This document shows positions 5,297 to 52,006 of a DNA stretch of 64,000 bases, one piece after another. The DNA comes from a bacterium. GTDB taxonomy: Bacteria; UBA8248; JACPRG01; G963555815. The notes under the pieces were generated by a model. The model was given only the letters and a program-made list of their open reading frames with translations. It was not told the DNA's origin and did no database searches. Both the position numbers and the translations under genes were made by a program. Location of the stretch: assembly GCA_965261595.1 (NCBI GenBank), contig CBDHDG010000005.1:448001-512000 (forward strand), written 5' to 3'. Numbering within the stretch: position 1 is the first letter of the stretch; the number at the start of each line of letters is the position of its first letter.

Positions 5297-5342
5297 GCGG
5301 CGGGGCTCCTCCAGCGTCATGTCACTTGCGTGACGGATCGGT

Positions 5343-7400: not shown

Positions 7401-7669
7401 TGTTTCTCCTTGAGGGCGTCGGGCCGCCCGGCGGCCCCGCCGGGGCCGCGAGGGCAAGCCATCATCCGGCCTGCCCGGGACGGGCCGGGCCATTCGGGGC
7501 TTATTCTCAATGGACTGGAGTCGAACGAAGCGAAAGGTCCGCCTCTATCGAGGGCGGTATTGTTACATTCCGACGTTCGCGAAGTCAACAAATTCGGATG
7601 ATCCGATGAAGACCGGCTTGCTCTTTCCCGCAGGTGGAAAGTCCTGAGGAGCGGTGGCTCCGTTGACCG

Positions 7670-8422
7670 TCAGTGAACCAGAAATCCCCCGTCCGCGACG
7701 AGGTTGTGACCGGTGACGTAGCTGGAGGCGTCGCTCGCGAGAAAGAGGATGGCTTCGGCGATCTCTTCCGGCCTGCCGAGGCGGCCCATCGGGACGTCGG
7801 CCAGGCGGGTTTCCAGCATGGCGGGGTTCGCGTGGTAGGTGTCCGCCAAGCCCTCCGTGTCGGTGGGGCCCGGGGCGACGGAGTTGACCCGGATGTTCTT
7901 CTCGGCCAGCTCGAACGCCAGCGCCCGGGTCATGTTCACAACCGCCCCTTTGGCGAGGCAATAGGCCGAGAGCTTGGCGGCGCCCACGAAACCGAGCTGG
8001 GAGGAGATGTAGATCACCGCGCCGCCGCCGCGCGCCTCCATGTGGGGGACGACCTTCTGTGTGAGGAAGTAGTAGGACGTGACGTTGACCTCGAGGGCGC
8101 GGCGGAACTCCTCGATCTCCACCTCCAGGAACGGCTTGGTCAGCCGCTGGATGTGGGGGACAACGAGCACGTCAATCCCCCCGAACCGCTCGACCGTCCG
8201 GGACACGAAGGCGTCCATGGCGGCGGGGTCGGACGCGTCGTGGACGGCGACGATCACGTCCGCGCCCAGGCCGCGGCATTCCTCTTCCACGCCCGCCATG
8301 GCTTTCGCGTCGAGGTCGATGAGTGTCAGGTCCGCTCCCGCCCGGGCGAAGCGGACGGCCGCTCCCTTCCCGATGCCCATCGCGGCGCCCGTGATGACGG
8401 CGGTTTTCCCTTTCAGGCTCAT
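7670..8422 (-). CDS. Short-chain dehydrogenase/reductase
   Basis: TGAAMGIG, YCLAK (YxxxK), RVNSVAPG, DGG. Confidence 0.92.
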   Translation of the reverse strand: MSLKGKTAVITGAAMGIGKGAAVRFARAGADLTLIDLDAKAMAGVEEECRGLGADVIVAVHDASDPAAMDAFVSRTVERFGGIDVLVVPHIQRLTKPFLEVEIEEFRRALEVNVTSYYFLTQKVVPHMEARGGGAVIYISSQLGFVGAAKLSAYCLAKGAVVNMTRALAFELAEKNIRVNSVAPGPTDTEGLADTYHANPAMLETRLADVPMGRLGRPEEIAEAILFLASDASSYVTGHNLVADGGFLVH

Positions 8423-8607
8423 CGATCTCTCCTTTTCTCAGTCGGTCGCAGATGATTCCGATGTCCCATTGGGTGTCATCGTCAGCGGGTTGGCAATCTG
8501 AACATCGTGTGCCACTGGCAGCTTGTCTGCCGGCGCCGCCCTTTCTTAAGAAGTCAGGCGCGCGGAGAACAGCCAGTCATCCCTCACGCGCTCGATTGTC
8601 GCCTGTC

Positions 8608-9774
8608 TCATTGGACTTCCTGCCAGATCCTTTCCACGTCCTCCCGGTCCACCGGGCGGGGGTTCGTCCGACGCTGGAAGCTGTCCAGGATGGTCTCCAG
8701 GATATTTTCCGGCAGGACCGCCGAGCGTTCGATCTCCGAGAGCCTGCGCGGCGCCCCGGCTTGATCCGCCAAGCGCGCGATGGCGTCCGCCAGGGCGTCG
8801 GCCGTCATTTTTTGAGGCCGGTCCCCTTCCCGTAAAAGGGCGGGGGCCAGCACCTCCGCCAGAAGCGCGTAATCCTTCTCGGCCGCCGACGCGTTGAACC
8901 GGATCACGTGGGGCATGAACATGGCGCACGACGCGCCATGGGGGATTTGGGTCATGGCCCCGAACGGGTGGGCCAGGGCATGGACGAGACCGAGGCCGGC
9001 GTTCGACATGGACATCCCGGCCATGCAGCTGGCGAAGATCATGGTTTCCGCCGCGCCGGGATCGCTTCGATCCTTCAGGTATCGGTGGAGTCCGTCGGCC
9101 CATCGGCGCGCCGCGCCCAAGGCGAGCGTCTCGGTCATCGGGGTCCGTCCATTGGAAACATAGGACTCGACGATATGGCTCAGGGCGTCCAGGGTGGAGT
9201 GAGCCGCCACCGTCGGGGGCAGGCCGGCCAGAAGCTCCGGGTCGAGGATGGCCAGCCGGGGGCGGATGGCCGGAGAGATCACGACGAACTTGTTTCGACG
9301 CTCCAGGTCGGTGATGACCGCGGCCGCGCCCACCTCGCTCCCCGTTCCGGCGGTGGTCGGAATGGCGACGAGGGAAGGCGGGGGGGCCGGGTAGGCTTCC
9401 CGCGGTCCTTCATAATCCACGGCGGTTCCGCCGTTCGCCGCGACGACGGCGGCGGCCTTCGCCGTGTCGATCGAGCTTCCTCCGCCCAGCCCGATGAAGC
9501 CGTCCGAGCCGGATTCCCGGTAGGCCTCCGCCGCCGCCTGGACGACGCCGACGGGCGGATCGGCCGCCGCGTCCCGGAAGGTGGAGACCTTCAGGCCGGC
9601 TTCTTCCAGGCCGGAGGCGACGCGGCCGAGGATTCCCGACTCGGCGACGCCGGGGTCGGTGACGATCAGGGGCCTTTCGATGCCGATTTTCTTGATCGGG
9701 TCGCCCGCGCGCGTGGATGACCCGGCGCCCGAGAGGATTGCGCCCGGTGTTTGAAACCGCGTCGTGTTCGTCAT
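8608..9774 (-). CDS. Iron-containing alcohol dehydrogenase
   Basis: GGGSSIDTAK, IPTTAGTGSE, DALSH, GLVHALAH, HG. The true start is the ATG at 9774 (MTNTTRF) inside the longer ORF call. Confidence 0.92.
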   Translation of the reverse strand: MTNTTRFQTPGAILSGAGSSTRAGDPIKKIGIERPLIVTDPGVAESGILGRVASGLEEAGLKVSTFRDAAADPPVGVVQAAAEAYRESGSDGFIGLGGGSSIDTAKAAAVVAANGGTAVDYEGPREAYPAPPPSLVAIPTTAGTGSEVGAAAVITDLERRNKFVVISPAIRPRLAILDPELLAGLPPTVAAHSTLDALSHIVESYVSNGRTPMTETLALGAARRWADGLHRYLKDRSDPGAAETMIFASCMAGMSMSNAGLGLVHALAHPFGAMTQIPHGASCAMFMPHVIRFNASAAEKDYALLAEVLAPALLREGDRPQKMTADALADAIARLADQAGAPRRLSEIERSAVLPENILETILDSFQRRTNPRPVDREDVERIWQEVQ

Positions 9775-9824
9775 CGTCCTTTCTCCTGGCAGATCCTTCG
9801 GGTCCGGCGGGTCAGGTCCGTTGG

Positions 9825-11429
9825 TCATCCCTCCGGGGTCGATCCCTCCCTCTCCTCGGGCGGTCCGTATCCCCCTCCGCCGGAGGTCTCCATCAGGATG
9901 ACATCCCCCTCGGTGAGCGGGAGGCTTTCCTTTCCGCGGATCGGCCGCTCGCCGGGGCCGGGGTTCAGGGTGACGCGGAACGTCTGGCCGGGCTCGCCGC
10001 CGAACGCGCCCCAGGGGGGGACCTGCCGCCTTTCGAGCATGGTCGTGACGCGCGCCTCGGAGGCCAGCATCCGGTAGCGCCGCCGGATGCCGAGGCCCCC
10101 CCGTCTTCGCCCGGCCCCCGCGCTTCCGTCCCGCAGCGCATACTCTTCGACCCGCATGGGATACTCGGCCTCGAGGACCTCGATGGGGGTGTTCATCACA
10201 TTGCTCATGTGTACCCGCGTGGCGTTGCTCCCGTCCCGGTGGGCGGCCGCGCCCGCGCCGCCGCCGTGGACTTCGTAGAGGATGAACGTCGTGCCGTCCG
10301 CCTTCTTTCCGCTGAACAGCGTGAGACCCGAGGTCGCCGGCCCGCCCGCGGTGATCCGATCGGGCAGGACCGGGGCCAGCGCCCGGAAGACGGCGTCCAC
10401 GATCACCTGGGACGTCTCGTGGTTTCCCCCGACCAGCGGGGCCTCCCGGCCCGGGTTGACCAAGGTGTTCTCGGGCGCGTGGACGGCGAGGGGCCGGCAA
10501 CACCCGTCGTTCATGGGGATGCCCCGGCCCACGAGGACGCGCATGCTGTAAAAGACGGACGCCGCCGCGATGAAGGGGGTCGTGTTGATGGGAAAGGGGA
10601 CCGGGGGGGACGTGCCGGTGAAGTCGAACGCCGCCCGGTCCCCCTCGATGCGGATGGCCAGGCGGATGGGCAGAGGCGCGCCCCCTTCCTCCATGCTGTC
10701 CATGAACTCCTCCGCCTCGTACAACCCGTCCGGGATGGCGGCGATCTCCCGCCGCATCCGGGTCTCCGATTCCTCCTGCATCCGCTCGAACGCCGCCAGG
10801 GTCGTCGCGCGCCCCCACTGGCCGAAGATGTCGAACAGGCGCGATTCCGCCACGGTCTGGCCAGCGTATTGCCCGAGGATGTCGCCCTCCCGCTCTTCCG
10901 GGTTCCGGACGTTCTCCAGAATGAAATCCAGCGTTTCCCGAACGGGACGGTCCGCCGAAAATATCTTGATCGGGGGGATTCGCAACCCCTCCTGATAGGT
11001 CTCCGTGGCGTCCGGAACGTAGCTGCCGGGCAGCGCCCCGCCGGTGTCCGGCCAGTGGGCGAGACAGACGGCGAAGGCGGACAGCGCTCCGTCGTAAAAC
11101 ACCGGCCGGATCGCTTTGACGTCGGGCAGGTGGTTGCCGCCGATCTCCGGCAGGTTCGTCAGGTACACGTCGCCGGGACGCAGGTCTTCCGGCGGGACGA
11201 CCTTGAGAAACTCCTTCACCGTGAAGGCCATGACCCCCAGGTGGACGGGCGTGTCCTGGCCCTGGGCGATGACCCGCCCCCGGGCGTCGGTCAGGACGCA
11301 CGAGAGGTCCCCCGCCTCCTTCAGCAGGGGCGCCCGCGCCGAGCGCATGACGATGAAGCGCATCTCCTCCGAGGTCGCGAGGACGGCGTTGCGGATCAGC
11401 TCCAGGGTGACGGGATCGATGCGGCTCAT
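9825..11429 (-). CDS. Hydantoinase B / oxoprolinase family subunit
   Basis: IDPVTLELIRN, PGDVYLTN..GGNHLPD, HWPDTGG, QEGLRIPP, GGGGYG; ATGA overlap with the upstream gene. Confidence 0.92.
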   Translation of the reverse strand: MSRIDPVTLELIRNAVLATSEEMRFIVMRSARAPLLKEAGDLSCVLTDARGRVIAQGQDTPVHLGVMAFTVKEFLKVVPPEDLRPGDVYLTNLPEIGGNHLPDVKAIRPVFYDGALSAFAVCLAHWPDTGGALPGSYVPDATETYQEGLRIPPIKIFSADRPVRETLDFILENVRNPEEREGDILGQYAGQTVAESRLFDIFGQWGRATTLAAFERMQEESETRMRREIAAIPDGLYEAEEFMDSMEEGGAPLPIRLAIRIEGDRAAFDFTGTSPPVPFPINTTPFIAAASVFYSMRVLVGRGIPMNDGCCRPLAVHAPENTLVNPGREAPLVGGNHETSQVIVDAVFRALAPVLPDRITAGGPATSGLTLFSGKKADGTTFILYEVHGGGAGAAAHRDGSNATRVHMSNVMNTPIEVLEAEYPMRVEEYALRDGSAGAGRRRGGLGIRRRYRMLASEARVTTMLERRQVPPWGAFGGEPGQTFRVTLNPGPGERPIRGKESLPLTEGDVILMETSGGGGYGPPEEREGSTPEG

Positions 11430-13453
11430 GGCTTCATCCGGAGGATCAGGCGCCCCCGGCCGTCCACCGTGAGCGAGCGGCCGGGCGGCAGGACCGTGAC
11501 GGACCATTCATCCTCGACGACGGCCGGCCCTTCGACCCGGTCGTCCGGGCCCAGGGCGGCGCGGTTCAGGATGGGCGTTTCAATCCGCTCGCCGTCGAAA
11601 TCCACCTCGCGGCGGCCCGCTTCGCGCTCCGCCGCCGCGTCCGGGCGGCGCTCCCCCGCGGTCCGCGTTTCCGTTGTCACGACGGCGGCGACCCGGACGT
11701 TCACGCACTCCACGGCCTCTTCCGTCACGTAGTGGTAGAGCGCCTCGTGCTCCCGATCGAACGCGCCCCGGACCTCGGCGGCCGACCAGCCGTTCACCCC
11801 GGTCAGGGGGATCTCGATCTCGTAGTTTTGCCGTTTGTAGCGGAGGTCCAGGGAGGGCTGGACCTGGATCGAATCCGGCGCGCACCCCTCTTCGATGAGG
11901 AGGTCCCGGGTGGCCCCCAGGAGATCATCCCAGAGGGGTTTCAGCGCCTCCGGCGAGAGGTCCTCCAGGAATACAGGGTGGGTCCTGACGGCCTCGTAGC
12001 GCAGGTCGGACGTGAGGCACCCCAGGGCCGAGAAGACCGAGGAGTCGGCCGGCACGATCACGGTCTCCATGTCGAGCGCCGCCGCCAGGGATGCCGCATG
12101 GACCGGCCCCACGCCTCCGTAGGCCACGAGCGCCCCTTCGCGAACGTCGCGGCCCCGCTTGATCGAGACGAGCCGGAGCGCGCCCAGGACGTTCGCCTCG
12201 GCGATGGCGACGATGCCCCGCGCGCTCTCCTCCAGGGTCATCCCCAGCGCCCCGGCGAGGCGGCCCACCGCTTCTTCCGCCGCCTCGCGGCGCAGGCGAA
12301 TCTTCCCGCCCAGGACGGCGTCGGGATTGAGACGGCCGAGGAGCAGGTTGGCGTCGGTCAGCGTGGGCTCCGTTCCCCCGAGGCCGTAACAGGCCGGTCC
12401 CGGGTTCGCGCCCGCGCTTCGGGGGCCGACGTGGAGGGCCCCCACGTCGTCCGTCCAGGCCAGCGAGCCCCCCCCGGCGCCGATGCTCTCGACCGCGACC
12501 GACCGCAGCCGGAAGGGCTGGCCGGCGACCTGTCTTTGGGCCATGAGCTCGGCGCGGCCGTTTTCGATGAGGCAAACGTCCGTTGTCGTGCCCCCCATGT
12601 CCAGGGCCAAGGCGCGGTCGCACCCCAACTCCCGCGTCAGGGCGCAGACCGCCGTCACGCCTGCCGCCGGGCCGGACATGACGAGGTTCAAGGGCTTTCG
12701 CCGCACGGCGGATTCGGACATCATTCCGCCGTTGGACTGGACGAGGTGGAGATGGGCGTCCCGGCCCGCCAGGTCGGTGTCCAGGTGAGAGAGGAAATCC
12801 GAGACGGTGGGCATCAGGTAGGCGTTCAGAACGGTCGTGAGCGCGCGCTCGTATTCCCGGAACTCGGCGTTGACTTCGGACGAGAGGCTGACGTGGTCGA
12901 ACGCCTCCCGCAGGGCGTCGCCCAAGGTCCTTTCGTGCGCCGGATTCGCGTAGGCGTGGAGCAGGCAGACGGCCACCGACTCGACCTCGGCGTCCTTGAG
13001 CCGCCGGATCAGGTCCGGGATCTCGTCGGTTCGGATGGGCGTCAGGACCCGGCCGGAGACGTCCAGCCGCTCGGCGATCTCGAAGCAGAGGTCCCGGGGG
13101 ACGAAGGGCGGCTGGCGGGAAGGCTTTTGGATCTCGTAGATATCGTCCCGCGACTGCCGGGCGATTTCGAGGAGGTCGCGAAATCCCCGTGTGGCGATCA
13201 GGGCCGTTCGCGCCCCCCGCCGTTCCTCCAGCGCGTTGGTGGCCACGGTGGTGCCGTGGACGATCTCCAGTCCCCGCAGGCCCCCGCCCGCGTCTTGAGC
13301 CACCCGTTCGAGGACGTGGAGGAGCGCCGCCGCCGGGCGGGCCGGATCGCTCGGGACCTTGAAAACCGTGGAGGTCCCGTTCGGGGAAAGGGCGACGACG
13401 TCGGTGAACGTTCCCCCGACGTCCACGCCGATCTTCCAGGAGGGTTGAGTCAT
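11426..13453 (-). CDS. Hydantoinase A / oxoprolinase family subunit
   Basis: GVDVGGTFTD, HGTTVATN, SGPAAG, DMGGTTTD, GPACYGLGG. Confidence 0.93.
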   Translation of the reverse strand: MTQPSWKIGVDVGGTFTDVVALSPNGTSTVFKVPSDPARPAAALLHVLERVAQDAGGGLRGLEIVHGTTVATNALEERRGARTALIATRGFRDLLEIARQSRDDIYEIQKPSRQPPFVPRDLCFEIAERLDVSGRVLTPIRTDEIPDLIRRLKDAEVESVAVCLLHAYANPAHERTLGDALREAFDHVSLSSEVNAEFREYERALTTVLNAYLMPTVSDFLSHLDTDLAGRDAHLHLVQSNGGMMSESAVRRKPLNLVMSGPAAGVTAVCALTRELGCDRALALDMGGTTTDVCLIENGRAELMAQRQVAGQPFRLRSVAVESIGAGGGSLAWTDDVGALHVGPRSAGANPGPACYGLGGTEPTLTDANLLLGRLNPDAVLGGKIRLRREAAEEAVGRLAGALGMTLEESARGIVAIAEANVLGALRLVSIKRGRDVREGALVAYGGVGPVHAASLAAALDMETVIVPADSSVFSALGCLTSDLRYEAVRTHPVFLEDLSPEALKPLWDDLLGATRDLLIEEGCAPDSIQVQPSLDLRYKRQNYEIEIPLTGVNGWSAAEVRGAFDREHEALYHYVTEEAVECVNVRVAAVVTTETRTAGERRPDAAAEREAGRREVDFDGERIETPILNRAALGPDDRVEGPAVVEDEWSVTVLPPGRSLTVDGRGRLILRMKP

Positions 13454-13492
13454 CGGTGACGCTTTCCTGATGAAACGGTTGAGGCGATTGAT

Positions 13493-15841
13493 TCAGGCAC
13501 CCGAGCCGGCCGCCGATCGGGCGGCCAGGGCGGACAGGACCCGCTCGGGCGTGACGGGAAGCTCCCGGACCGGCTCGCCCAGGGCGTCGGCCACGGCCAG
13601 GGCGATCGCCGAGGCGGCGGGGGTGAGGGCGGGCTCGCCGATCCCCTTGGCCCCGAACGGCCCCAGTCCGCTGCCGGATTCCAGGATCTCGGTCTTCACG
13701 TCCGGCGTGTCCAGGGCCGTGGGCAGCAGGTAAGTTTCCAGGTTTTCGGTTTCGGTGACGCCGGCTCGAAGGACAACCTCCTCCATCAGCCCCTGGCCGA
13801 GACCCATGTAGGCCCCGCCTTCCATCTGGCCTTCGACGCTGGTCCGGTTCACGGCTTTGCCCACGTCGAAGCAGGACGAGAGCCGGCGCACGATCACCTC
13901 GCCGGTTTCGGCGTCCACGGCCACTTCCGCGCCGACGGCGCCGAACGTGTAATCGTTGAACGCCCGGCCCCGGCCCGTCGCCGGGTCGATGGGATCGCCG
14001 CCGGGGGCGTCCCATTTGGACAGGTTGCCCAGCGGCTTTCCAGTCGCGGCCATCCGGCGGACGACCTCGGAGAGTCCGAGCCCCCGCTCGGGAAATCCCC
14101 GCACGGCGGCGCGTCCGGCCCCCAGCTCGATCTCCTCGGGCGAGACCTCGAGCATGTCCGCCGCCACCTCCAGCAGGTCCCGGCGGATCTGAAAGCATGA
14201 TTCCAGGATGGCGTTGCCGCTCATCATGAGCTGTCGGGTGGCGGTGGTCGTCCCGGCCAGGGGGGTGAGTTGGCTGTCCGCCCGCTGGACGGTGATTCCG
14301 CCCGGGTCGACGCCGAGGACTTCCGAGGCCAGGGTGGCCATGGAGGAGGCCTGTCCGCCTCCGTGGTCCGGGGTCCCGGTGCGGATCACCAGGCTCCCGT
14401 CCATCTCGAACCCGACCCAGGCCTGGGCGCTGTCGTGCGTCCAGTGCATGCGCCCGTAGGGGGTGATGCCGGCGGCCACCCCCCGGCCGATCAGGGGCCG
14501 GCCCGGCGCCGCTCCGCTCCCGGACGGGCCGTCCTGCGAAAGCGCCTCCCGGCAGCGCCGGGCCGCCTCGGCCAGCTCCACCTCCGAGCGGATGTCTTCC
14601 CCGGTGCCGAGGGCGTCTCCTTTGCGGAGGTAGTTGATCTCCCGGAACCGGCCTGGGTCCATGCCGAGGGCGCGGGCCGCCGCGTCCATCTGCATCTCGT
14701 AGGCGAAATTGGACTGGAGCGAGCCAAAGCACCGCATGGCGCTGGCGAAGGTGTTGTTGGTGTAAACGCCCTTTGCGTCCACATGGACGTTGGGGATCCG
14801 GTACGGGCCGGTCGCGGTGACGGCCGAGTAGTGGACGACCCAGACGGTCAGGTAGGCGTAGGCGCCGCCGTCGGCCAGGAGGTCGGCCTCCAGGGCCGTG
14901 ATCCGTCCGTCCCGCGTCACGCCTGTTTTGTACCGCATGACGTAGGGGTGCCGCTTTCCGTGGGCGAGGATGGATTCCTCCCGTTTGTATTCCAGGCGCA
15001 CGGGCCGCCTCGTCTTCCAGGCCAGCAGTCCCAAGAAGACCTCGACGGTGACGTCCTCTTTGCCCCCGAAGCCGCCGCCCAGATAGGCGCACCGGATGCG
15101 GACCTTGCTGTCCGGAATCCCGAGGGCCTGGGCGACGTCCCGGTAGTGTTCGAGCACCTGGGTGCCCACATTGATGTTGATGACCTGGTCGTCGTCCACC
15201 CAGGCGACGCCGGTCTCCGTCTCCAGGTACGCGTGGTCGATCCACTGGGTTGTGTAGCGGTTTTCGACGATGATGTCGGCCTCGGCGAAACCGGCCTCGA
15301 TGTCGCCCCGGCGAACGGACCAATGGCAGACGAGGTTTCCGCCCTTGTGGACGCGGGGGGCGTCGGGACGGAGGGCTTCGAGGGGGTCGAACACGCCGGG
15401 CAGCGGCTCGTAATCGACCGCGACGCGGGCGAGCGCCTCCTCGGCGGCGTCCTCAGTCTCCGCGGCCACCAGGGCCACGGGCTCGCCCAGGTAACGAACG
15501 CGGTCTCCGGCGAGGATCTGGTGGAAGGCCGTGTGCGCCCCTTCGCCCGCATCGGACATGCGCCCCGGCAGACCGGCGAGGAGCTCGTTGCGCGGCACGT
15601 CTTCAGCCGTCAGGACGCAGGCCACGCCGGGCACGGCCAGCGCCGCCGTTTTGTCGATCCCGCCGATCCGGGCCGAGGGATGTTTCGCGTGGAGCACCCG
15701 GCCGACCAGGGCGTTGCGGGGGATGTCGTCGGATGCGTAGCGGAGGACGCCCCCGGCCTTGTCCACCGCGTCGTGGCGGATCATCCGCCCGCCGACCCCA
15801 TGGGGGCTTCCCCGCGTTTTCATCCGATCCTTGACCGCCAT
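13493..15841 (-). CDS. Xanthine dehydrogenase-family molybdopterin-binding subunit (AMRCFG variant)
   Basis: HAYLE, GGGFGGKE, AMRCFG, EGQMEGG, GAKGIGE. No adjacent FeS or FAD subunit genes. Confidence 0.92.
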   Translation of the reverse strand: MAVKDRMKTRGSPHGVGGRMIRHDAVDKAGGVLRYASDDIPRNALVGRVLHAKHPSARIGGIDKTAALAVPGVACVLTAEDVPRNELLAGLPGRMSDAGEGAHTAFHQILAGDRVRYLGEPVALVAAETEDAAEEALARVAVDYEPLPGVFDPLEALRPDAPRVHKGGNLVCHWSVRRGDIEAGFAEADIIVENRYTTQWIDHAYLETETGVAWVDDDQVININVGTQVLEHYRDVAQALGIPDSKVRIRCAYLGGGFGGKEDVTVEVFLGLLAWKTRRPVRLEYKREESILAHGKRHPYVMRYKTGVTRDGRITALEADLLADGGAYAYLTVWVVHYSAVTATGPYRIPNVHVDAKGVYTNNTFASAMRCFGSLQSNFAYEMQMDAAARALGMDPGRFREINYLRKGDALGTGEDIRSEVELAEAARRCREALSQDGPSGSGAAPGRPLIGRGVAAGITPYGRMHWTHDSAQAWVGFEMDGSLVIRTGTPDHGGGQASSMATLASEVLGVDPGGITVQRADSQLTPLAGTTTATRQLMMSGNAILESCFQIRRDLLEVAADMLEVSPEEIELGAGRAAVRGFPERGLGLSEVVRRMAATGKPLGNLSKWDAPGGDPIDPATGRGRAFNDYTFGAVGAEVAVDAETGEVIVRRLSSCFDVGKAVNRTSVEGQMEGGAYMGLGQGLMEEVVLRAGVTETENLETYLLPTALDTPDVKTEILESGSGLGPFGAKGIGEPALTPAASAIALAVADALGEPVRELPVTPERVLSALAARSAAGSGA

Positions 15842-15871
15842 CGAGTCCGAACCCCCGGGCAAAAGCCCCTG

Positions 15872-16702
15872 CTAAACGTCCCAGCCGCTGTCGATGATCA
15901 GGGCTTGGCCCGTCATGTTGCGGGATTTTTCCGAGCAGAGGTACAGGACCGCGGCGGCGATCTCTTCTTCGTCCGGAAAACGGCCCAGGGCCATCTCGCT
16001 GGTGTACTTCTTGTAGACCTCGTCCCTCGTCTGATTCCAGGCCTGGGCCTTTTCCTGGATGATTTTTTCCATCCGGTCTCCGTAGATGGGACCGGGGCAG
16101 ATGCAATTGACGTTGATGTTATGAGGGCCCAGCTCGAGCGCCAAGGTCCGCGTGAAGCCGCGCACGGCCCACTTGGAGGAGGAATAGGACGCGCGGTTGA
16201 TGTAACCCCGGAGCCCGGAGGTCCCGGAGATGTTCACGATCTTCCCCCACTTCTTCTCCAGGAGGGTCGGGATGACGTGCTTGCAGCAAAGGAACGTCCC
16301 CTTCAGGTTGACGCCGAGAACGTAGTCCCAATCCTCGACGGAAATCTTGTGGACCGGGGTCTCCACCGGGCCGATGACGCCCGAGGTGTTGACGAGGATG
16401 TCGATGCCGCCGAACGCTTTCAGGGTCTCATCGAGCATGGCCTTCACCTGGTCCTCTTCCCGGACATCCAGGGAGAGGGTGACCGCCTCGACGCCGGGGA
16501 CTTCCTTGCGGATCTCCTCGACCTGGGCGTCCAGCGCGGCCACGTCCCGCGCGCACAGGGCAAGACGCGCGCCTTCCCGGGCCAGGTCCAGGGAGATCCG
16601 TCCGCCCATCCCTTTGGCGCCGCCGGTGATGATGGCGACCCTGTCCGCAAATTCACCTTTGCCGTTTTTCGGTTTCGCGTTCAATGTTCTTTCCGCCTCC
16701 AT
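15872..16702 (-). CDS. Short-chain dehydrogenase/reductase
   Basis: TGGAKGMG, YSSSK, NVNCICPG. Confidence 0.92.
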   Translation of the reverse strand: MEAERTLNAKPKNGKGEFADRVAIITGGAKGMGGRISLDLAREGARLALCARDVAALDAQVEEIRKEVPGVEAVTLSLDVREEDQVKAMLDETLKAFGGIDILVNTSGVIGPVETPVHKISVEDWDYVLGVNLKGTFLCCKHVIPTLLEKKWGKIVNISGTSGLRGYINRASYSSSKWAVRGFTRTLALELGPHNINVNCICPGPIYGDRMEKIIQEKAQAWNQTRDEVYKKYTSEMALGRFPDEEEIAAAVLYLCSEKSRNMTGQALIIDSGWDV

Positions 16703-20579: not shown

Positions 20580-21716
20580 ATGATCACCGTCCACATGGAT
20601 GTCGTCGGAAGCCTCCTCAGACCCCCGGAGCTGCTGGGGGCGCGGGAAGACGCGGCCGGGGGGAGGCTCTCGCGGGCCGGGCTCAAGGCAGCCGAGGACC
20701 GGGCGGTGGATGCGGCCGTTGTCCTTCAGGAGAAAGCCGGGCTGGCCGTCGTCACCGACGGGGAAATGCGGCGGCTCTCCTTCCAGTCTCAGATGACCGA
20801 GGCGGTGGAGGGGTTCGGGGAGTGCGGCATCGACGCCTTTCTCTGGGGGGACTGGCGCGGCGATGAAAGGGTCGGGGACAAGGAGATCCGGCGGCCGGCG
20901 TCGCTGGGCGTCGTGGGCAGGCTTCAGCGCAAGCGCCACCTCTCGGCCGAGGAGTTCACGGTCCTTCGCGCGATCACGAGGGGAAAGCCCCTCATTCCCA
21001 AAGTCACCCTTCCCAGCCCGAGTCTCTGGATGAACTTTTGGCCGACGGATCGCCGGGTGGACGCCTATCCGACCCTCGACTCCTTCCTGGCCGACGTCGT
21101 GGATATCCTGCGCGGCGAGGTCGCCGAGCTCGTCCGGTTGGGCGCGACGTACATCCAGATCGACGCGCCCCAATACACGGCCGCGCTGGACCCGAAAGGC
21201 CGGGCCTTTTACGAGTCCCGGGGTTGGAGTGGGGGGGAGAGGGGGGAGGAATGGCTGTCGCGGGGGATCGAGATGGACAACGCCGTCATGGACGGCTTCC
21301 CGGACGTCACCTTCGGCTTTCACCTCTGACGGGGGAACCAGGCCAGCCGGTGGCTGGCCGAGGGCGGCTACGGCCGCATCGCCCGGACCGTTTTCCGGGG
21401 CGTCCGCGCCCAGCGCCTCCTACTCGAATACGACGACGAGCGCTCCGGCGGTTTCGAGCCGCTCAAAGACGCGCCCGAGGACAAGACCGTCGTCCTGGGT
21501 CTTGTCACGACCAAATCGTCCCGCCCGGAGACGGTGGAAGGGCTCTCCGCCCGCGTCCGGGAGGCCGCCCGCTACGTTCCGCTCGAACGGCTGGCCCTGA
21601 GCCCCCAGTGCGGGTTCTCCACGTCCGTTGTCGGAAACCGGATCTCCGCGGAAGAGCAGAAGCGGAAGCTGGAGGTGGTCGCCGAAACGGCCGGGGTGGT
21701 TTGGGGGGCCGGATGA
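20580..21716 (+). CDS. Cobalamin-independent methionine synthase catalytic-domain-like (Meth_synt_2) protein; predicted selenoprotein (TGA 21327-21329 = Sec250)
   Basis: VVGSLLRP, TDGEMRR, YIQIDAP, HL(TGA)RGN, LLEYD, LGLVTTK, LSPQCGF are all in one frame (378 codons); SECIS-like hairpin downstream of the TGA. Confidence 0.9.
21341..21359 (+). promoter_or_regulatory. Putative bacterial SECIS element
   Basis: Perfect 8-bp stem GGCCAGCC-GGT-GGCTGGCC starting after an 11-nt spacer from the in-frame UGA; GU in the apical loop. Confidence 0.8.
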
Positions 21717-29844: not shown

Positions 29845-32800
29845 CTACGCCCCGGGAAGCGCGGCGATTCGGGGAACCTCCAGATGGAACGTTGCGCCCA
29901 CGCCCACCTCGCTTTGGACGTCAATCCGGCCCCCGTGATTTTCGATGATGCCGTGGACAATGGAAAGCCCCAGCCCCGTCCCCTCCGCCACATCCTTGGT
30001 CGTGAAAAAGGGGTCGAAAATATGGGGGAGCGCCTCAGGCGGAATCCCCACACCCTCGTCTTTGACGCTGCACCGCACCCATGGCTCTCCCCCCCGGTTC
30101 ACGGATTCGGCCGAAAGGGTGACGGCGCCCTTCTGGTCCATGGCGTCCAGGGCGTTGTTGATCAGGTTGATAAAAACCTGGGAAATCTGATCACGATCCG
30201 CCTCCACCGTGATCGGAGTCTCCGGGAGCTTGAGCTGGTACGTTGGGCCGGCCATCCGGAATTGGGGTTCCAGCATGGCCAGGGTGTCCCGGATGAGCTC
30301 CAGGATGTCGAACCGCGTGACGGAGGAGTCTTCCTCTCTCGAGAAGCGGCGCAGGCCGCCGCAGATCTTGGCGATCCGCTTGACGCTCTGATAGATGGTT
30401 TCGCAGGATTTGCGGACTGCCGAGGGGTCTTGCGGGGTCCGTATCAGTCCCTGCGCGTGCATGCCGATAATGTTGGCCGGATTCAGGATCTCGTGCGCCG
30501 CGCCCGCGGTCAGGCGTCCCAAGGAGGCGAGCTTCTCGTTGCGCAGCAACATTTCCTGCGCCCGGATTCGCTCGGTGATGTCGCGGGCCAGCGCCAGGAT
30601 CCGCCGGTGTCCGCCCGACTGGATGAGCCCGAGTCGGATCTCGACCGGGAAGGTCTCCCCGTTCTTGCGCCGGTGCATCCCTTCGATCGTCAGGGTTTTT
30701 CCGTCCTCGACAGTTTTCCACATCCGCTCCAGCATTTCGTCGTTGAAATTCACATCGATCTCGCCAACGGACAGCTTCAACAGCTCTTCCCGCGAGTAGC
30801 CCAAGGTGTCGCACGCCTGCTGATTGACATCGACAAACCGGCCGTCGAGGCCATGGACGAACACAGCGTCCGCCGCTTGCTCGACCAGGCTTCGAAAGCG
30901 CTCCTCGCTTTCCCGAAGGGCCTGCTCAGTGCGCTTTTGGGCCCCGATGTCCCGGTGGATTGCGATGAATCCTTCAAATTCCCCGTCCTGGTCCCGGAGC
31001 GTCGATAGGCTGATCGAGACCTCCAGCGGGGCGCCGTCTTTGCGGTGCATTACGGTTTCGATGGGAGAGACCTCCTCCTCCGCAATCAGCCGGTTGCGGT
31101 ACGTCATCATTCGGTCTCTGGGCCCCGGATCCCTGGCCAACAGGTTCAGAAAATTTTTTCCGACGGCTTCGCGCGCGGTGTGCCCATACAGGGCCTCCGC
31201 GCCCGGATTCCAAGAGGTGACGACCCCTTCGGCATTGACCGTGAGAATCCCATCCGTCGCGCTGCGGACCAGGTTGTCCAGCCGTTCGCCCGTTTCCCGG
31301 ACCTGGGCGTACAGTTCCGCGTTCTTCATGGCGATCGCCAGGTGGTCGGCCACGGAAACCAGCAGGTCGATGTGTTCCGGCGTGAAGGCGTCCACCTGTT
31401 CGGAGACGACGCTCAACGCCCCGATGCAGGACCCTTCGCTTAAAACGGGGACCGTCACGACGGACAGCAGTCCCTGCGAAGCGAGTGAGAGAAGCCGGGC
31501 GTAAGGACCGTCTCGGGTGTCCGGCGTATAGAGAGGCGCGTGGGTCTCGAAAAGTCTTTCATACTGGCTGCCGGTCAGATCCCTTCGTGATTCGACCCAC
31601 CCTTCCCGCGGCTCGTTGATGTCCACCGTCCAATAATCCGTGATGGATTTCCGCTTTTCGTCGATGGCGTACAGGGCGCTGCCCACGCAGGGCGCCAGCC
31701 GTCTGACTTGCTCCACAGCGATTTTAAACAGCGCTTCCAGCTCCAGGGTGGAGTTGACCCCCTTGGCGATCTCCTCCAGGATCTCCAGATTCGTGGCCCG
31801 CCGCTGGACTTCCGCGAAGAGCCGGGAGTTATCGATGGCGATGGCGGCTTGGTCCGCGAAGGCCTGACTGGTGGCGACCAGGTCCGGCCTCAATTCCTGT
31901 AGGGTGTCGAAGCAGAAGGTCATGGCCCCGATGATCTTTCCCCGAACCCGGAGGGGAAGGATGAGGGCCGAGCGGAGACCCTCCCGCTCCACCCACTCGC
32001 GGACGGCTTGTTGCCTCGGGTCGTTCACGGCGTCGTGAATCAGGATCGGCTCGCCCGCTTGGAGGACCTCCCTGCGGGACAGCCTTTCTTTCAGGTTTTC
32101 GAGTTCATCCAGAAATTCCCGCGAAAGACCCCGCGCCGCAAGGTATCGTCCCTCCTTGTTTCCCTCTCCGGACAGGTAGACCGAGCCCCGGTCCGCGCCC
32201 ATCGCCTCGAACGCTTCCTCGACGATCCTTTCGAGAATCCCCTCCAATTCCAGAACCGAGGTGATTCTCGCGGAGGTGTCCACGAGCGCCTCCAGTCTCT
32301 CTTTCGCCATGAGGACGTCCCGGTGTGAGGCCTGGACCCGCCCCAGCAGGTGGTTGATCCCTTCCCCCAGCCGGGACAACTCGTCCCCTCCCCGAACCGA
32401 TACGCGCCCGGACAAGTCTCCGCCGATGTGGAGATCGGCCAAGCCCTTCGTCAGTCCGGCGACCGGCCGCAGGACGGACCTTTCGAGAACGACGATCGTC
32501 AAGCCCCCGAACAGGACGCCCACCCCGACAAGGGCCCACAGAAAGTACGAGGATCTGCGGCGGCCTTGGTCGTAAATGTGCCTGGACAGATTCGCCCGCA
32601 GGACCAGCGCGGGCTTGCCGTAGATGTCTTGGAGAAGCGCGAATCCCGAGACCAGTCGGCTGTCCAGGGGTTGAACCCCAATGCGTTTCCCATCGGCCAG
32701 TGAGGGAAGCGCCGCCTTGAAGGCCGCGGGCAGGTTCGGATCATCGAAGCGGTGTGCTGTGAAAGCGACATGGGTCCGCCGGGCGATCTTCCGGACCTCC

Positions 32801-33376
32801 GCCCGGTCCAGGATTCGGCCCATCACCACGGTCCCCCGGATGGGTCCATCGCCCTTCCCCGCCAGAATGGGACGGGAGGCCACGAGCAGGACCTGTCCCT
32901 CGGAAAGGGAAAGAACCCCCTGGAGACTGCTTTTGGAGGCCGTATGACGCCAGAGGCGCTTTTTTGAGAGATGCTCTTCCAGGATGCTCTTAGGGGACGG
33001 GCAGCTTGCTCCCCTTTTTCAGATCGAAGCCTTTGCCCCAGACCAGCCGGCCGGATTTGTCGATCACGAGCAGAAGGTTGAGTTTGAGCTCGCTGAACGC
33101 GGCGTCCGACAGGCGTTCCCGGATGAAATCCGCATTGCCGTCGCGGACGAACGCGTATGTATCGTCGCGGGAACCCATCCGGGACGCCGCCGAGTCCAGG
33201 GCGTGGAGGTCATCCGAGATGGCGCTGAGGACCTGTCCGGCGCTCCGCCGCGCGTCCCGCGCCTCCAGGTCCTCGTAGCTGCTGAGCAGGACGAAGCGGA
33301 ATACGCCGTACAGGACGCCGATGAGGACGACGAGCACGGCCCCGATGATGAGGAGCGTTTTCTGACGAAGCGTCAT
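29845..33376 (-). CDS. CHASE4-HAMP-GAF-GAF-PAS-PAS sensor histidine kinase (one apparent frameshift near 32995)
   Basis: ORFs 33376-32990 and 32883-29845 join on removing one base from a C4 run. AHEILNP H-box, NLINNALDA, IFDPFFTTK, GTGLGLS. Confidence 0.85.
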
Positions 33377-34787: not shown

Positions 34788-37079
34788 ATGGGAGCGCGAC
34801 GCTTGGCCACGACTGAAAAATGGCGGCACGTGGGAAAACGGGTTCCCCGGCTGGACGCCCGGGAGAAGGCGATGGGCGGCCTCCTGTATCCGTCCGACCT
34901 CGTTCGGGACGGGGTGCTCTGGGTGCGCGTCCTGCGCGCCGGGCGGGCGCATGCCCGGATCCTGAGCATCGATGCCGACGGGGCCGGCCGTGTGCCGGGG
35001 GTCGCGGCGGTCCTCACGGCGCGTGACGTCCCGGGCCTGAACCTGTGCGGCGCCGTGGCGGCGGACCGGCCGGTTCTATGCGGAGATGTGGTGCGCTATG
35101 AAGGGGACGCCGTCGCCCTGGTCGCCGCCGAGACGCCCGAGGCGGCCGCGCTCGCCCTGGACCGGATCACCGTGGAATACGAAGACCTGCCCCCGCTGCC
35201 GGACATCGAGGCGGCTTTGTCTCCCGGCGCCGCCCCCATTCACGGGGACGGAAACGTTTTCAAGGAGATTCACGTGTCCTGAGGAGACGTCGAGGCGGGA
35301 TTCGGCCGGGCGGACTGGGTGGTCGAGGAAGGTTTCCGCACGCAAAGCCAGACCCACGTCTACCTGGAGACCGAGGCGGCCTTGTCCTTCCGGGATGAAA
35401 CGGGCCGGCTGACGGTCGTCGCGACGGGCCAGTTCCCCCAGTTCGACCGGACGCAGGTCGCCCGGGCCCTGGGACTCGATGAAGACGCCGTCCGGGTCCT
35501 CAATCCCTCCAACGGAGGGGCCTTCGGCGGCAAAGAGGAAATCACCGTTCAGGTCTATCCCGCCCTCGTGACCCTCTTGACGGGCCGGCCCGCCAAGATC
35601 GTCCTGGGCCGGGAAGAGTCCATCGTGGCGGGGACCAAGCGGCACCCGATGCGTTTCCGGTACAAGGCGGGCGTCCGCTCGGACGGCTCGCTGACGGCCT
35701 TGTCGGTGAGAATCGAAAACGACACCGGCCCTTACCTCTCCTATGGGCACATCATCACGAACGTCGCCCTGACGCATGCGTGCGGGGCTTATTCGATCCC
35801 CGACGCGCGCCTCGACGCCGCGACCGTTTTCACCCACGGGTCATTCGGCGGGGCGTTCCGCGGCTTCGGCTCCTCGCAGCCGGCGTTCGCCGTCGAGGTC
35901 TTCATGGACATCCTGGCCGAGCGCGCGGGGATGGACCCCATCGCGTTTCGGCTGAAAAACCGCGTCGCCCAAGGGCGGCCGATGGTGGGGAACAAGGTGT
36001 TGGAGATCTCCGCCCCCGTCGCCGAGCTGCTCGAGACGGCCCGCGCCCATCCGCTCTACGCCGAGCGCGAACGGATCCGGGCCGAGCAGCCGGATCTGCC
36101 TCCCGAGCGGCGAAGGGACTGCCGGACGGGCATCGGCGTCGCCCTGTCGATGAAGAACTGGTGCATGGGGTCGAACGTGAAGGACGAGACCCATGTGGAG
36201 GTCCGTCTGGAGGCGTCGGGGCGGGTTGTCGTCGAGTCCGGGATCACCGAGATCGGCACGGGCAACCTCACGGCGATCGCCCAGGTCGCGGCGGAAATCC
36301 TCAATTGCGAGGTGGAGCGGATCCGGGTCGTGGAGGGGGACAGCGACTCGCCCGACGGCGGGCCCACCAACGCCTCGCGCACGGTGTACATGGGCGCCGG
36401 CGCCGTCCACCAGGGGGCGACCGCCCTCAAGGAGGAGATCCTCAAGCGGGCGTCCGAGATGGCGGATGTTCCCCGGGAACAGCTCTTTCTGGAAGACGGG
36501 CGCGTGCGCGGCCGTCCGCCGGCCGACGTGGAGGTTTCTTTCGCCGACCTGGCGCGGGACGGCGCGGTCAAGGCCCGCGGGTTTTTCGAGGCCGCCCAAT
36601 TTCACGGCGATGACGACTGGCTTCCGCCCTATCTCTTCGCCTTCGCCGTTCATCTCGTTCAGGCGGCGGTGGATGTGAGGACGGGGGAGCTTGACGTTCA
36701 GAAGGTCTTTTGCGTCCTGGATCCCGGCCGGGTCATCAACCCCATCGGCGTGGAGGGGCAGTCCGAGGGAGGGGTGGCCATGGGCTTGGGCTGCGCCTTC
36801 ATGGAAGAGCTCGTCCTTCGGGACGGAATTCACGAGAACGTCTTTTTGGGCGATTACCTGATCCCGACTTCCCTGGACGTTCCCGATATCCGGACCGCGT
36901 GGGTCGAGCATCCCGAGGAGACTTCTCCGTACGGGGCCAAGGGGATCGCCGAGTTGCCGATGAACCCTTTCGCGCCGGCCCTTTCCAACGCCCTGTATCA
37001 TGCCTTGCGCGTCCGGTTTCTATCCACGCCCATCACCCCGGCTGCCGTCGTTTCGGCCCTGAGGGGTCGCCGACCCTGA
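34788..37079 (+). CDS. Xanthine dehydrogenase-family Mo-binding subunit interrupted by an in-frame TGA (35280-35282)
   Basis: ORFs 34788-35282 and 35319-37079 share one frame: EIHVS*GDVEAGF. Motifs GGAFGGKE, AFRGFG, EGQSEGG, GAKGIAE. Confidence 0.85.
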
Positions 37080-45703: not shown

Positions 45704-46272
45704 CCCCCCGGAAGCCGGTCCTGCGCGCGACGCTTCTCCAACTGTCCGCGCTCCTGTGGGCGGTCGCGGCCCTTACGGGCCTCCATGGGTCTTCCGCCCT
45801 CGCCGCCGAGGTGGGGGACCCCCGCCCCGGACTTCCGCCTGAAGAGCACGACGGGCAGGCCCATCGCCCTCAGCGACTACCGGGGGAAGAAGAACGTCGT
45901 CGTCCAGTTCTACGTCCTCGACTTCACCCCCGGCTGATTGGCCGAGTTCACGGCGAGTCAGTTGGACTACGCCAGGTTTCGGGCGCTCGACGCGGAGATC
46001 CTCGGGGTCAGCGTCAACGCTCCCCATTCGCAGGCCATCTTCGCCCAGATGCTGAAGCTGAAGTTTCCCCTCCTCAGCGATTTCAGGATGGAGGCCATGC
46101 GGAAATGCGGGGTCAAGAACCCCCGGCGCGAGATGGCGCTTCTCTCCTGGTTCATCGTCGACAAGAAAGGGATCATCCGCCTCAAGCACGTCGCCCGAAA
46201 GCAGGGCGACATCCTCCCCACAAAGACGCTGCTCCGAGAGCTGCGGGGGATCCGGGGGGGGGGGGGGGATGA
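45700..46272 (+). CDS. Exported peroxiredoxin (AhpC/TSA family); predicted selenoprotein (TGA 45935-45937); homopolymer frameshifts near 45820 and 46260
   Basis: Signal peptide...AEVGDP / [41 protein letters not shown]...AEILGVSVN...FPLLSDF...[10 protein letters not shown]. Confidence 0.85.
45952..45973 (+). promoter_or_regulatory. Putative bacterial SECIS element
   Basis: GGCGAGTC-AGTTG-GACT(A)CGCC hairpin starting after a 14-nt spacer from the UGA; G at loop position 2. Confidence 0.7.
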
Positions 46273-46502
46273 AGGCGCTCTCGGCCCGTCTCTCGGCCCT
46301 CGCGGCGATCCTTCTCGCGGACGCCGGCGATCTCGTGGCGCACCACGAGCTGGCGGACCCCTCCGTCATCTTCGACAAAATGGACCGGCCCCTCGTGACG
46401 GCCACGTCCGCTCAGGCCCTGTGGGCCGCGCTGGGCATTCTCGTGATTCCCATCGTCATCATCGCGCTGGTTTTCTGGTCGCAGCGCTCAAAGGAGTTTT
46501 GA
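46269..46502 (+). CDS. Small membrane protein
   Basis: 77 aa with N-terminal and C-terminal hydrophobic segments, tightly packed between neighbours. Confidence 0.55.
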   Translation: MKALSARLSALAAILLADAGDLVAHHELADPSVIFDKMDRPLVTATSAQALWAALGILVIPIVIIALVFWSQRSKEF

Positions 46503-46510
46503 AAAACCGA

Positions 46511-51136: not shown

Positions 51137-52006
51137 ATGGAGCATGTGCGGGAGAAGCTGAGCGTGTCCGAACGTCGCGCCTGCCGGGTGCTGGGTCAGG
51201 CCCGCTCGACTCAGCGGCGCTCTGCCCAGGTCCCTGACGATGAGGCCCGTTTGGTGGCGCGGGTGACAGAGCTGGCGAGCGAGTACGGACGGTACGGCTA
51301 CCGGAGGATAACGGCTCTGTTGGAAAGAGAAGGCTGGCGAGTGAATCACAAGGGGGTGGAGCGGATCTGGCGCCAGGAAGGCCTGAAGGCGCCGAAGAGA
51401 CAGCCCAAGCGAGGGCGTTTATGGCTGAACGACGGCTCTTGTGTTCGCAAGCGTCCGTCTTATCGGAATCATGTGTGGTCCTACGACTTCCTGGCCGCGA
51501 GGACGCACGATGGGCGGCCTTTACGGATGCTGGCTGTGATGGATGAGTTGACCCGGGAGTGCTTGGCCCTTGATGTAGAGAGAAGACTCAACTCCGAGGA
51601 CGTCCTGGACCGCCTCACCGAGTTGTTCGTCCGGCGTGGCCTGCCGGCTTATATCCGCTCGGACAACGGGGCGGAGTTCACGGCGAATGCGGTGAGAGGG
51701 TGGCTCACCCGTCTTGGGGTGAGAACGCTTTACATCGAGCGGGGCAGTCCCTGGGAGAACGGCTATGTGGAGTCCTTCATCGGCAAGCTGCGCGATGAGC
51801 TGCTCAACGGGGAGATCTTCTACACCCTGACAGAGGCCAAGGTGTTGGTGGAGAGATGGCGACAACTCTACAACCGGGTAAGGCCCCATAGTGCCTTGGG
51901 CTACCGGCCCCCGGCGCCGGAGGCCATCGAACCAATGCCTCCGGGCATCCCTACACTTTCGGACATCGGGGAGCAGAGACTAACTCAAAAAGTGGTACAA
52001 CTTTAG
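51137..52006 (+). CDS. IS3 transposase OrfB (joined to OrfA by a -1 frameshift)
   Basis: YGYRRI, WSYDF, IRSDNGAEF, PWENGYVESF, RPHSALGY. Confidence 0.92.
   Translation: MEHVREKLSVSERRACRVLGQARSTQRRSAQVPDDEARLVARVTELASEYGRYGYRRITALLEREGWRVNHKGVERIWRQEGLKAPKRQPKRGRLWLNDGSCVRKRPSYRNHVWSYDFLAARTHDGRPLRMLAVMDELTRECLALDVERRLNSEDVLDRLTELFVRRGLPAYIRSDNGAEFTANAVRGWLTRLGVRTLYIERGSPWENGYVESFIGKLRDELLNGEIFYTLTEAKVLVERWRQLYNRVRPHSALGYRPPAPEAIEPMPPGIPTLSDIGEQRLTQKVVQL

Follow-up and report, generated by a model that had tools for sequence, protein, structure and literature searches.

The subject of this report is a gene within a 64,000-nucleotide stretch of bacterial DNA (GTDB lineage Bacteria; UBA8248; JACPRG01; G963555815) that covers positions 448,001 to 512,000 of contig CBDHDG010000005.1 in assembly GCA_965261595.1, and that is called the window throughout. 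The gene is located on the + strand at window positions 20580-21716 and carries an in-frame TGA. It is highly probable that this gene encodes a genuine selenoprotein, in which selenocysteine (Sec, or U) is incorporated in place of Cys by means of a bacterial Sec insertion sequence (SECIS) within an enzyme fold that is already known. The protein is a single-domain (beta-alpha)8-barrel enzyme that resembles the methionine synthase MetE and is of the type represented by YxjG and by the structure 1YPX. Both the mechanism of Sec insertion and the fold have precedents. The features that have not been described before are the proposed presence of Sec at the catalytic zinc-ligand position of a methyltransferase and the link of such a gene to selenoneine clusters.

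The read-through gene and its relatives

The proposed Sec codon is the TGA at 21327-21329 (+), which the window DNA presents as CAC CTC TGA CGG GGG AAC. Under translation table 11, the open reading frame (ORF) at 20580-21329 specifies only 249 amino acids. When the TGA is read as Sec, the frame remains open to a terminator TGA at 21714-21716 and specifies 378 residues, with Sec at position 250 (U250). A preliminary description of this DNA had proposed this read-through frame, and we confirm that the TGA is its sole interruption. The fraction of G or C at third codon positions is the same (0.86) upstream and downstream of the TGA, in a window that has 64.2% GC overall. Both halves of the gene are therefore coding in one frame.

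The read-through protein matches the Pfam family Meth_synt_2 (PF01717) with 49.7 bits (cut-off 21), and the NCBIfam profile PRK06520 is covered from end to end, with residues 5-375 aligned to positions 9-368 of the 368 in the profile. No selenoprotein-specific NCBIfam model matches it. Among solved structures, the closest by sequence is 1YPX (E = 2e-47, or 2e-61 with a profile), a Listeria protein whose record reads 'putative vitamin-B12 independent methionine synthase family protein'. A search of a large protein collection gave 8000 scored candidates, all with E <= 0.001. The best 120 of the 8000 are full-length proteins of 369-396 amino acids that are 67-76% identical to the window protein, and they carry the name 'cobalamin-independent methionine synthase II family protein' in their sources.

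According to passages of PMC7005905, MetE and core-MetE bind zinc through the motif HXCXnC, and His215, Cys217 and Cys312 are the zinc ligands of the Dehalococcoides core-MetE. The same passages report that tandem MetE coordinates its metal through a His, two Cys residues and a Glu, and that the zinc of MetE activates the thiol for methyl transfer. In the window gene, the TGA takes the place of the first Cys of this motif. The corresponding column is Cys in 16 of 16 aligned Cys homologs, where it lies within FHLCRGNQxSRWL. The same alignment reveals invariance at H248, the His of the motif (codon CAC, 21321-21323, +), at E283 (codon GAA, 21426-21428, +), and at C344, the second Cys of the motif (codon TGC within SPQCGF, 21609-21611, +). 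In addition, C344 is aligned by HMMER to the CG of Candida MetE.

In an AlphaFold2 model generated from a 17-sequence alignment (pLDDT 82.4, pTM 0.87), H248 and U250 are found where strand 244-249 ends, strand 279-283 terminates at E283, and C344 follows directly on strand 338-343. The best fold match identified by Foldseek is 1ypx (E = 2.7e-18, TMq 0.73), and TMq values of 0.70-0.74 are obtained with MetE structures that contain bound Zn2+ and homocysteine. The preliminary description had named H248, U250, E283 and C344 as the zinc ligands. This assignment stands, on the basis of homology, for H248-x-U250...C344, which fits HXCXnC within a modeled MetE barrel; U250 would thus be a zinc ligand by correspondence with the MetE motif. 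The role of E283 as the fourth ligand is less direct, and is suggested by its invariance and by its position at the end of strand 279-283.

To survey homologs, a degenerate DNA pattern corresponding to H-x-TGA-R-G-N-x-x-[S/T-like]-x-W-x-x-x-G-x-Y was scanned against one genome per species. By our own arithmetic, the pattern holds ~44 bits of information, so that no more than about one match is expected by chance. At least 107 loci (L numbers below) were obtained; more exist, and all counts based on 107 are among the matches listed. Every one of the 107 listed loci is a true homolog with TGA at the zinc-Cys column. Where the sequence is long enough, the frame is open for ~126 codons past the TGA to the usual C-terminus. 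The listed loci span at least 13 phyla and include 19 from Poribacteria, 17 from Chloroflexota, 16 from Binatota, 14 from Acidobacteriota, 8 from 'Deltaproteobacteria' labeled Myxococcota and 7 from Methylomirabilota, plus members of at least seven further phyla. The preliminary description had claimed a hidden selenoprotein and had named TGA in homologs as a check on this claim. The recurrence of TGA at the same Cys column in at least 107 species-level genomes supports it.

The distribution of Sec and Cys forms was examined with a FastTree phylogeny of 179 rows, comprising 59 Sec forms (58 complete genes and the window gene) and 120 Cys forms that were the top of one search and are biased towards the query. 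Sec and Cys forms are interleaved on this tree. The Sec/Cys label changes 11 times, and at least two of these changes are forced by well-supported branches, compared with ~50 changes when labels are shuffled. Sec-only clades are formed by Binatia/delta (20 rows), Poribacteria (12 rows) and Dehalococcoidia (7 rows), and a Methylomirabilota-centered clade of 12 rows contains 11 Sec forms and one Cys form. No second, Cys-containing paralog was found within the 107 listed loci or the window. Two contigs of one Udaeobacter metagenome-assembled genome (MAG; SMAG_U10962) each carry a Sec-form copy (L014 and L080) with identical local protein sequence around the TGA, and these are either two copies or redundant contigs.

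The hairpin downstream of the TGA

The preliminary description had noted a perfect hairpin with a GGT loop that begins 11 nt past the TGA, and this element is present at 21341-21359 (+) with the sequence GGCCAGCC-GGT-GGCTGGCC. Its 8-bp stem is formed by 21341-21348 and 21352-21359, and the loop occupies 21349-21351. The 60 nt that start at the TGA fold with -39.3 kcal/mol (z = -3.74), and none of 200 dinucleotide shuffles folds as well. A 61-nt stretch gives z = -3.60, with one of 200 shuffles as good.

Bacterial SECIS elements, as captured in the bSECISearch model and in work on E. coli fdhF, consist of a stem-loop just past the UGA with a G in the apical loop. The minimal fdhF element has an 11-nt spacing and a G/U apical loop. 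The window hairpin likewise lies near the UGA, following an 11-nt spacer, and has a triloop that begins with G and ends with U. The bulged U that we take to be part of the E. coli fdhF SECIS is absent from the window hairpin.

The 48 nt that begin with the TGA were aligned without gaps in 108 sequences, in which the helix corresponds to columns 15-22 paired with columns 26-33. In these 108 sequences, which share kinship, 88.6% of helix cells are paired, compared with 19-71% when the 3' arm is slid by one to three columns. Neither the covariation score nor the number of double changes is reached by any of 500 shuffles. Two loop sequences occur, GGU (90 of the 108) and GUU (the other 18). At least five contiguous base pairs can form in 105 of the 108 (97%). 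When codons 254-261 are resampled synonymously according to the genes' own usage, this degree of pairing is reached by 17% on average and by no more than 31% in any of 2000 trials. The window hairpin belongs to the strongest class, with eight contiguous base pairs, to which 19 of the 108 sequences belong; it is aided by the Ala codons at positions 255 and 260.

The individual codons exhibit the same pattern. In pair 18-30, the partners are the third bases of codon 255 and of the Leu259 codon, both of which are synonymous positions. Among 100 distinct rows, this pair is CG in 86, GC in 6, AU in 2, GU in 2, UG in 2 and something else in 2. The codon for Ser256 is AGC in 59 of 59 complete genes, whereas four other AGY-Ser columns use AGT at 30-40%. 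In the same 59 genes, Arg257 is encoded only by CGG (48) or CGT (11), though CGC is the commonest Arg codon there, and its codon entropy is the lowest of 13 invariant Arg columns. The hairpin is under selection as RNA, beyond what the protein requires, across at least 107 homologs. A conserved downstream hairpin had been named as a second check on the proposal, and what is found is a helix that keeps its register and covaries in the 108 sequences. These compensatory synonymous changes, together with the alternation of Sec and Cys forms on the tree, lend further support to a hidden selenoprotein.

Gene neighborhoods and a proposed role

Neighboring genes were surveyed with a Pfam scan of 76 neighbors from 38 loci, with NCBIfam applied to selected neighbors, and with tblastn of neighbors against the 107 listed loci, 80 of which have flanks and 51 of which hold at least 9 kb. 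The Pfam scan of 76 neighbors from 38 loci revealed no context common to all clades. However, 25 of the 80 flanked loci contain at least one of SenA, SenB and SelD, mostly on the same strand as the Sec gene. In these sen loci, the Sec gene is often beside EgtD and a betaine-type ABC transporter. The numbers of loci with a match are 13 for SenA, 13 for SelD, 15 for SenB, 11 for EgtD, 12 for the ATPase and 8 for the permease fusion.

Two loci illustrate these arrangements. In Methylomirabilis (L006), a single strand carries egtD, the Sec gene, senA, a ProV-like ATPase gene and a gene for a betaine-type substrate-binding/permease fusion. The NCBIfam scores are 381 bits for egtD (cut-off 291) and 515 bits for senA selenoneine synthase (cut-off 420). 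In Poribacteria (L059), the order is egtD, a transporter pair, the Sec gene, senA, selD and senB, with 526 bits for senA and 387 bits for senB (cut-off 300). For all four neighbors, SenA, SenB, SelD and EgtD, the NCBIfam cut-offs are exceeded. The Sec gene has egtD directly upstream and senA directly downstream in nine loci (L006, L007, L012, L015, L049, L064, L068, L071 and L079). Of these, L064 is an 'uncultured Gammaproteobacteria' contig whose EgtD and SenA are 98-99% identical to those of Methylomirabilis L006, with which it groups on the tree, and its label is probably a binning or labeling error.

In 13 Poribacteria loci, the Sec gene is followed by a Sec-type selD and by senB (L008, L013, L023, L036, L042, L045, L046, L047, L052, L059, L073, L077 and L078). 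The neighboring selD has an in-frame TGA in the context ...KTCG-TGA-AAKVSP. Because this TGA occupies the catalytic position in 13 of 13 loci, the senC-like selD beside senB is a Sec-type SelD.

Other contexts are specific to certain clades. In 11-12 loci of the Binatia/delta clade (among them L009, L021, L022, L025, L030, L031, L057, L061, L065, L067 and L080), the Sec gene is followed on the same strand, at a distance of ~1.5-2.4 kb, by a gene for a conserved membrane methyltransferase of ~150 amino acids that resembles PEMT/ICMT. A ThrC-like pyridoxal phosphate enzyme is encoded nearby in L022, L056, L062 and L080. In 11 Poribacteria loci (e.g., L008:6832-7890), the gene just before the Sec gene encodes an Amidohydro_2 (PF04909) protein and is itself preceded by a gene for a 257-amino-acid protein with a weak FeS_assembly_P match; an Amidohydro_2 gene also adjoins the Sec gene in two other clades (L034:7615-8685; L035:8296-9300). 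A 689-amino-acid protein beside sen genes (L048:547-2616) matches PRK06370 over residues 231-687 with 777 bits (cut-off 629). Table 1 of PMC13674229 includes a PRK06370-type FAD-containing oxidoreductase family among the genes co-encoded with EgtB/SenA-type synthases. In the Dehalococcoidia clade and in the window, none of the sen, egtD, transporter and PEMT/ICMT contexts was found.

We propose that the hairpin would serve as a bacterial SECIS that recruits SelB with Sec-tRNA, leading to the insertion of Sec at the UGA. The selenolate of U250, together with H248, C344 and probably E283, may then bind a catalytic Zn2+. The resulting Zn(His)(Sec)(Cys)(Glu) site could activate a thiol or a selenol for methyl (alkyl) transfer, as in MetE. 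If this mechanism is correct, then Sec might tune the zinc site, possibly for selenium-containing substrates, or protect it. With regard to protection, a selenolate at the zinc site could make oxidative damage reversible. Parts of PMC4360819 report that NaOCl stress leads to S-bacillithiolation of the zinc-binding active-site residue Cys730 in B. subtilis MetE, that YxjG is modified likewise, and that methionine auxotrophy follows. Judged from its sequence, the product of the window gene is probably a MetE-like thiol/selenol alkyltransferase, and we make no finer assignment.

For the sen-linked clades, we favor, though loosely, a methyl-transfer reaction connected with selenoneine or hercynine metabolism. 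Candidate reactions for these relatives include the Se-methylation of selenoneine and the remethylation of homocysteine, which might sustain the three S-adenosylmethionine (SAM)-dependent methylations carried out by EgtD. A bolder proposal is that these genes constitute an overlooked and widespread Sec-Zn family that also provides a fourth gene of the selenoneine cluster (arranged as egtD-X-senA or X-selD(Sec)-senB, where X is the Sec gene) with an undescribed step of selenoneine or methyl-selenium metabolism. Such a step might be the formation of Se-methylselenoneine or the recovery of selenium by demethylation of methylated selenium compounds. This combined proposal is tentative, and we consider it plausible but short of probable.

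Alternative readings and comparison with known systems

Several observations weigh against the interpretation of the window gene as encoding a Sec-containing, MetE-like enzyme. The NCBIfam scores of the protein are under the curated cut-offs (218.9 versus 313 for PRK06520, and 196.8 versus 576 for PRK06233), and for this reason it is not filed as an equivalog of a named methionine synthase. A search of the whole window with Rfam at gathering scores gave 0 matches; at 21280-21420, with E values up to 10, three chance-level matches and no SECIS family were returned. The 5-bp core of the hairpin, AGC CGG TGG CTT, is also retained in a Cys-form gene from a Rubrobacter plasmid (59% identity). This comparison has n = 1: the plasmid collection gave 40 records, all <60% identity, and the Rubrobacter gene is the sole close one. 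Domains of selA, selB and selD were not found among the 45 ORFs scanned in the 64-kb window. A tRNA-Sec was likewise not found there, where ARAGORN saw no tRNA gene at all, and none was found in 60 homologous loci, in which the only tRNA genes seen by ARAGORN are one tRNA-Arg and one tRNA-Ala. The window gene also has no SenA, SenB, SelD, EgtD or betaine-transporter neighbor (E < 1e-8 to 1e-10). Three further points, which concern possible decay of the gene, are considered with that alternative below.

Indirect evidence of Sec decoding in this organism comes from a second in-frame TGA at 45935-45937 (+), which is located in a peroxiredoxin (Prx)-like gene at 45785-47860. The TGA falls within DFTPGU and would place Sec at the peroxidatic Cys position. 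A Pfam AhpC-TSA match begins at profile position 49, directly past the TGA. The gene is thus of the Prx TxxU type, which is an experimentally verified selenoprotein family (PMC13188914 Table 1). The Prx-like gene runs on in-frame into Amidohydro_1 (residues 458-621 of the post-TGA ORF). A Prx-amidohydrolase fusion would be unusual, and the hairpin past the Prx TGA is not significant alone (z = -1.2).

The alternative that survives best also accepts a genuine selenoprotein. According to this explanation, the enzyme acts on selenium compounds, with which Sec would form short-lived Se-Se or Se-C intermediates instead of being just a spectator zinc ligand of a homocysteine methyltransferase. Possible reactions are the Se-methylation of selenoneine, the demethylation of methylated selenium and the donation of selenium to SenA or SelD. 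Such chemistry is favored by the egtD-X-senA order in nine loci, by the complete egtD...X-senA-selD-senB cluster of L059 and by the occurrence of X before Sec-type selD and senB in 13 Poribacteria loci. Sections of PMC10418091 also link MtaA-like members of the UroD/MetE superfamily to methyl-selenium metabolism. However, sen neighbors are lacking for the window gene and for the Dehalococcoidia and Binatia/delta Sec clades, close Cys forms exist, and a neighborhood by itself gives no chemistry. We regard this explanation as rather unlikely, and prefer a Sec residue that serves as a zinc ligand.

The window copy could instead be a pseudogene or the product of a sequencing error, wherein a single change from TGY to TGA leaves a dead 249-amino-acid fragment. 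Consistent with this view, the nearest relative of the window gene on the tree is a Cys form (P0003, from a Nitrospinota MAG, 77% identity), and extra premature stops are present in two of the 107 listed homologs. In addition, the window holds a Mo-hydroxylase gene with a probable nonsense TGA, a split CHASE4 kinase gene and insertion sequence (IS) elements. The Mo-hydroxylase TGA at 35280-35282 reveals that nonsense changes or errors occur in this window, and because such defects are present a small probability of a pseudogene remains. On the other side, the stop falls on the exact column where at least 107 other species carry TGA, and the 128 downstream codons retain full coding bias and all invariant residues. 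The window hairpin is among the strongest in the set, and a Sec-type Prx gene is found in the same window. We consider a pseudogene or an error very unlikely, and far less probable than a functional selenoprotein.

Some details of these defects are as follows. The extra stops in the listed loci are a TAG at codon 216 of L038, in a Trp column, and a TGA at codon 130 of L045, in an Arg column. Both loci are from chromosome-level MAGs and may be decaying copies or assembly errors. The interrupted Mo-hydroxylase is a large subunit of the xanthine dehydrogenase family (34788-37079, +). Its TGA was considered as a Sec codon and rejected, since the residue at this position is R, R and V in three window paralogs and no downstream structure is present (z = +0.40). 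The probable explanation is a nonsense mutation from CGA to TGA, or an error. A CHASE4/HAMP/GAF/PAS histidine kinase gene seems to be split at 29845-33376 (-), with CHASE4 profile positions 1-64 in the ORF at 32990-33376 and positions 98-139 at the start of the ORF at 29845-32883, and may have undergone a frameshift or disruption. Two stretches of the window (3419-16702 and 34788-57127) are rich in paralogous catabolic genes, including four Mo-hydroxylase large subunits, two hydantoinase/oxoprolinase A+B pairs and several amidohydrolases. IS transposases of the rve type are located at 536-1453 and 51137-52006.

The weakest alternative holds that the UGA is read without selenium (by near-cognate Trp, Cys or Arg decoding or under a reassigned code) or that the two halves are made apart and assemble as a split enzyme; it draws on public gene calls that hold the halves as separate truncated proteins, such as an NC10 C-terminal piece of 116 amino acids called 'vitamin-B12 independent methionine synthase' and N-terminal pieces of 240 amino acids, but it is extremely improbable given that the first in-frame start after the window TGA yields only a 60-amino-acid ORF (21534-21716) without E283 and RGNQxSRWL, that a conserved hairpin with synonymous covariation is a prediction of SECIS-dependent recoding, and that a Sec-type selD adjoins the homolog in 13 loci. 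Moreover, TGA is not reassigned in the window, since it is the main terminator and ends 24 of 36 Pfam-supported ORFs, the MetE-like gene included. This ordinary use of TGA is a further point in support of the hidden selenoprotein.

To place this selenoprotein among those already cataloged, we searched published inventories. The self-described most comprehensive inventory, PMC13188914 (May 2026), comprises 119 prokaryotic selenoprotein families and subfamilies. No MetE-like entry appears among the 119 families of its Table 1, and 'methionine synthase', 'MetE', 'homocysteine' and 'PF01717' are absent throughout. Nor do these MetE terms occur in the main texts of PMC12013277, PMC13326102, PMC13745706, PMC2398784 and PMC1976440, or in the supplements of PMC12013277 and PMC13326102. 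The earlier remark that this is not a classical selenoprotein family thus agrees with every selenoprotein list searched. We found no description of a Sec-containing MetE-like protein in the literature searched, and a report elsewhere is possible.

To our knowledge, Sec acts in nearly every selenoprotein described so far either as a redox residue or in the coordination of a redox metal. If our interpretation is true, then a Sec residue that coordinates a Lewis-acid zinc in an enzyme of methyl transfer would represent a different use of selenium, and would provide a natural system for asking what effect a selenolate has on zinc-thiolate chemistry. The findings also expose a gap in annotation that extends over at least 107 species-level genomes from at least 13 phyla, in which these genes are annotated as two truncated 'methionine synthase' fragments. 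Because the halves are annotated in this manner, both selenoproteomes and methionine pathways are misread in groups such as Poribacteria, Binatia, Methylomirabilota and Dehalococcoidia. The location of the gene between egtD and senA, and beside a Sec-type selD, would connect the pathways for protein selenium and small-molecule selenium, and points to a missing enzyme of selenoneine biology.

Among known systems, the cobalamin-independent methionine synthase II family (B. subtilis YxjG/YxjH, 1YPX, PRK06520/PRK06233) is similar to the window protein in length, in its single-domain organization and in alignment from end to end, and has in common the motifs FHxCRGN, LEYDxERSG and SPQCGF. The window gene differs in that TGA replaces the codon for the first Cys of HXCXnC and is followed by a SECIS-like hairpin. 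The barrel fold and HXCXnC are also common to MetE and to the core-MetE of Dehalococcoides mccartyi, and the spacing of 94 residues between U250 and C344 is close to the 95 between Cys217 and Cys312 that can be taken from passages of PMC7005905 for core-MetE. The sequence similarity of the window protein to MetE is nevertheless weak and partial (E = 1e-5 to 1e-10). In contrast to tandem-repeat MetE, the window protein is without the N-terminal folate-binding domain and has Sec at a ligand position.

The senA-senB-senC clusters of Kayrouz and Seyedsayamdost are adjoined by the Sec-MetE-like gene in 25 of the 80 flanked loci, but not by the window gene. Excerpts of the preprint (bioRxiv 10.1101/2022.04.13.486033) describe a cluster of three genes, with egtD and a selenate transporter co-localized in a subset, and the excerpted text does not mention a MetE-like gene. 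Such a gene is also absent from the table in PMC13674229 that lists genes encoded together with EgtB/SenA-type synthases.

Other selenoproteins share particular aspects of the proposed enzyme. Arsenite methyltransferase and the MduS-type selenoproteins (PMC13188914 Table 1) are also methyltransferases that carry Sec. However, they have SAM-dependent Rossmann folds and no zinc site, whereas the window protein has a MetE/UroD barrel. A natural Zn-Sec catalytic site was not found in the literature searched. The nearest parallels for Sec at a metal are FdhA (Mo/W) and the [NiFeSe] hydrogenases (Ni), in which, according to sections of PMC13188914, Sec replaces a metal-ligating Cys and is specified by a UGA with a downstream SECIS. 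These enzymes are oxidoreductases that employ redox-active metals, whereas the window enzyme is proposed to use a Lewis-acid Zn2+ for group transfer.

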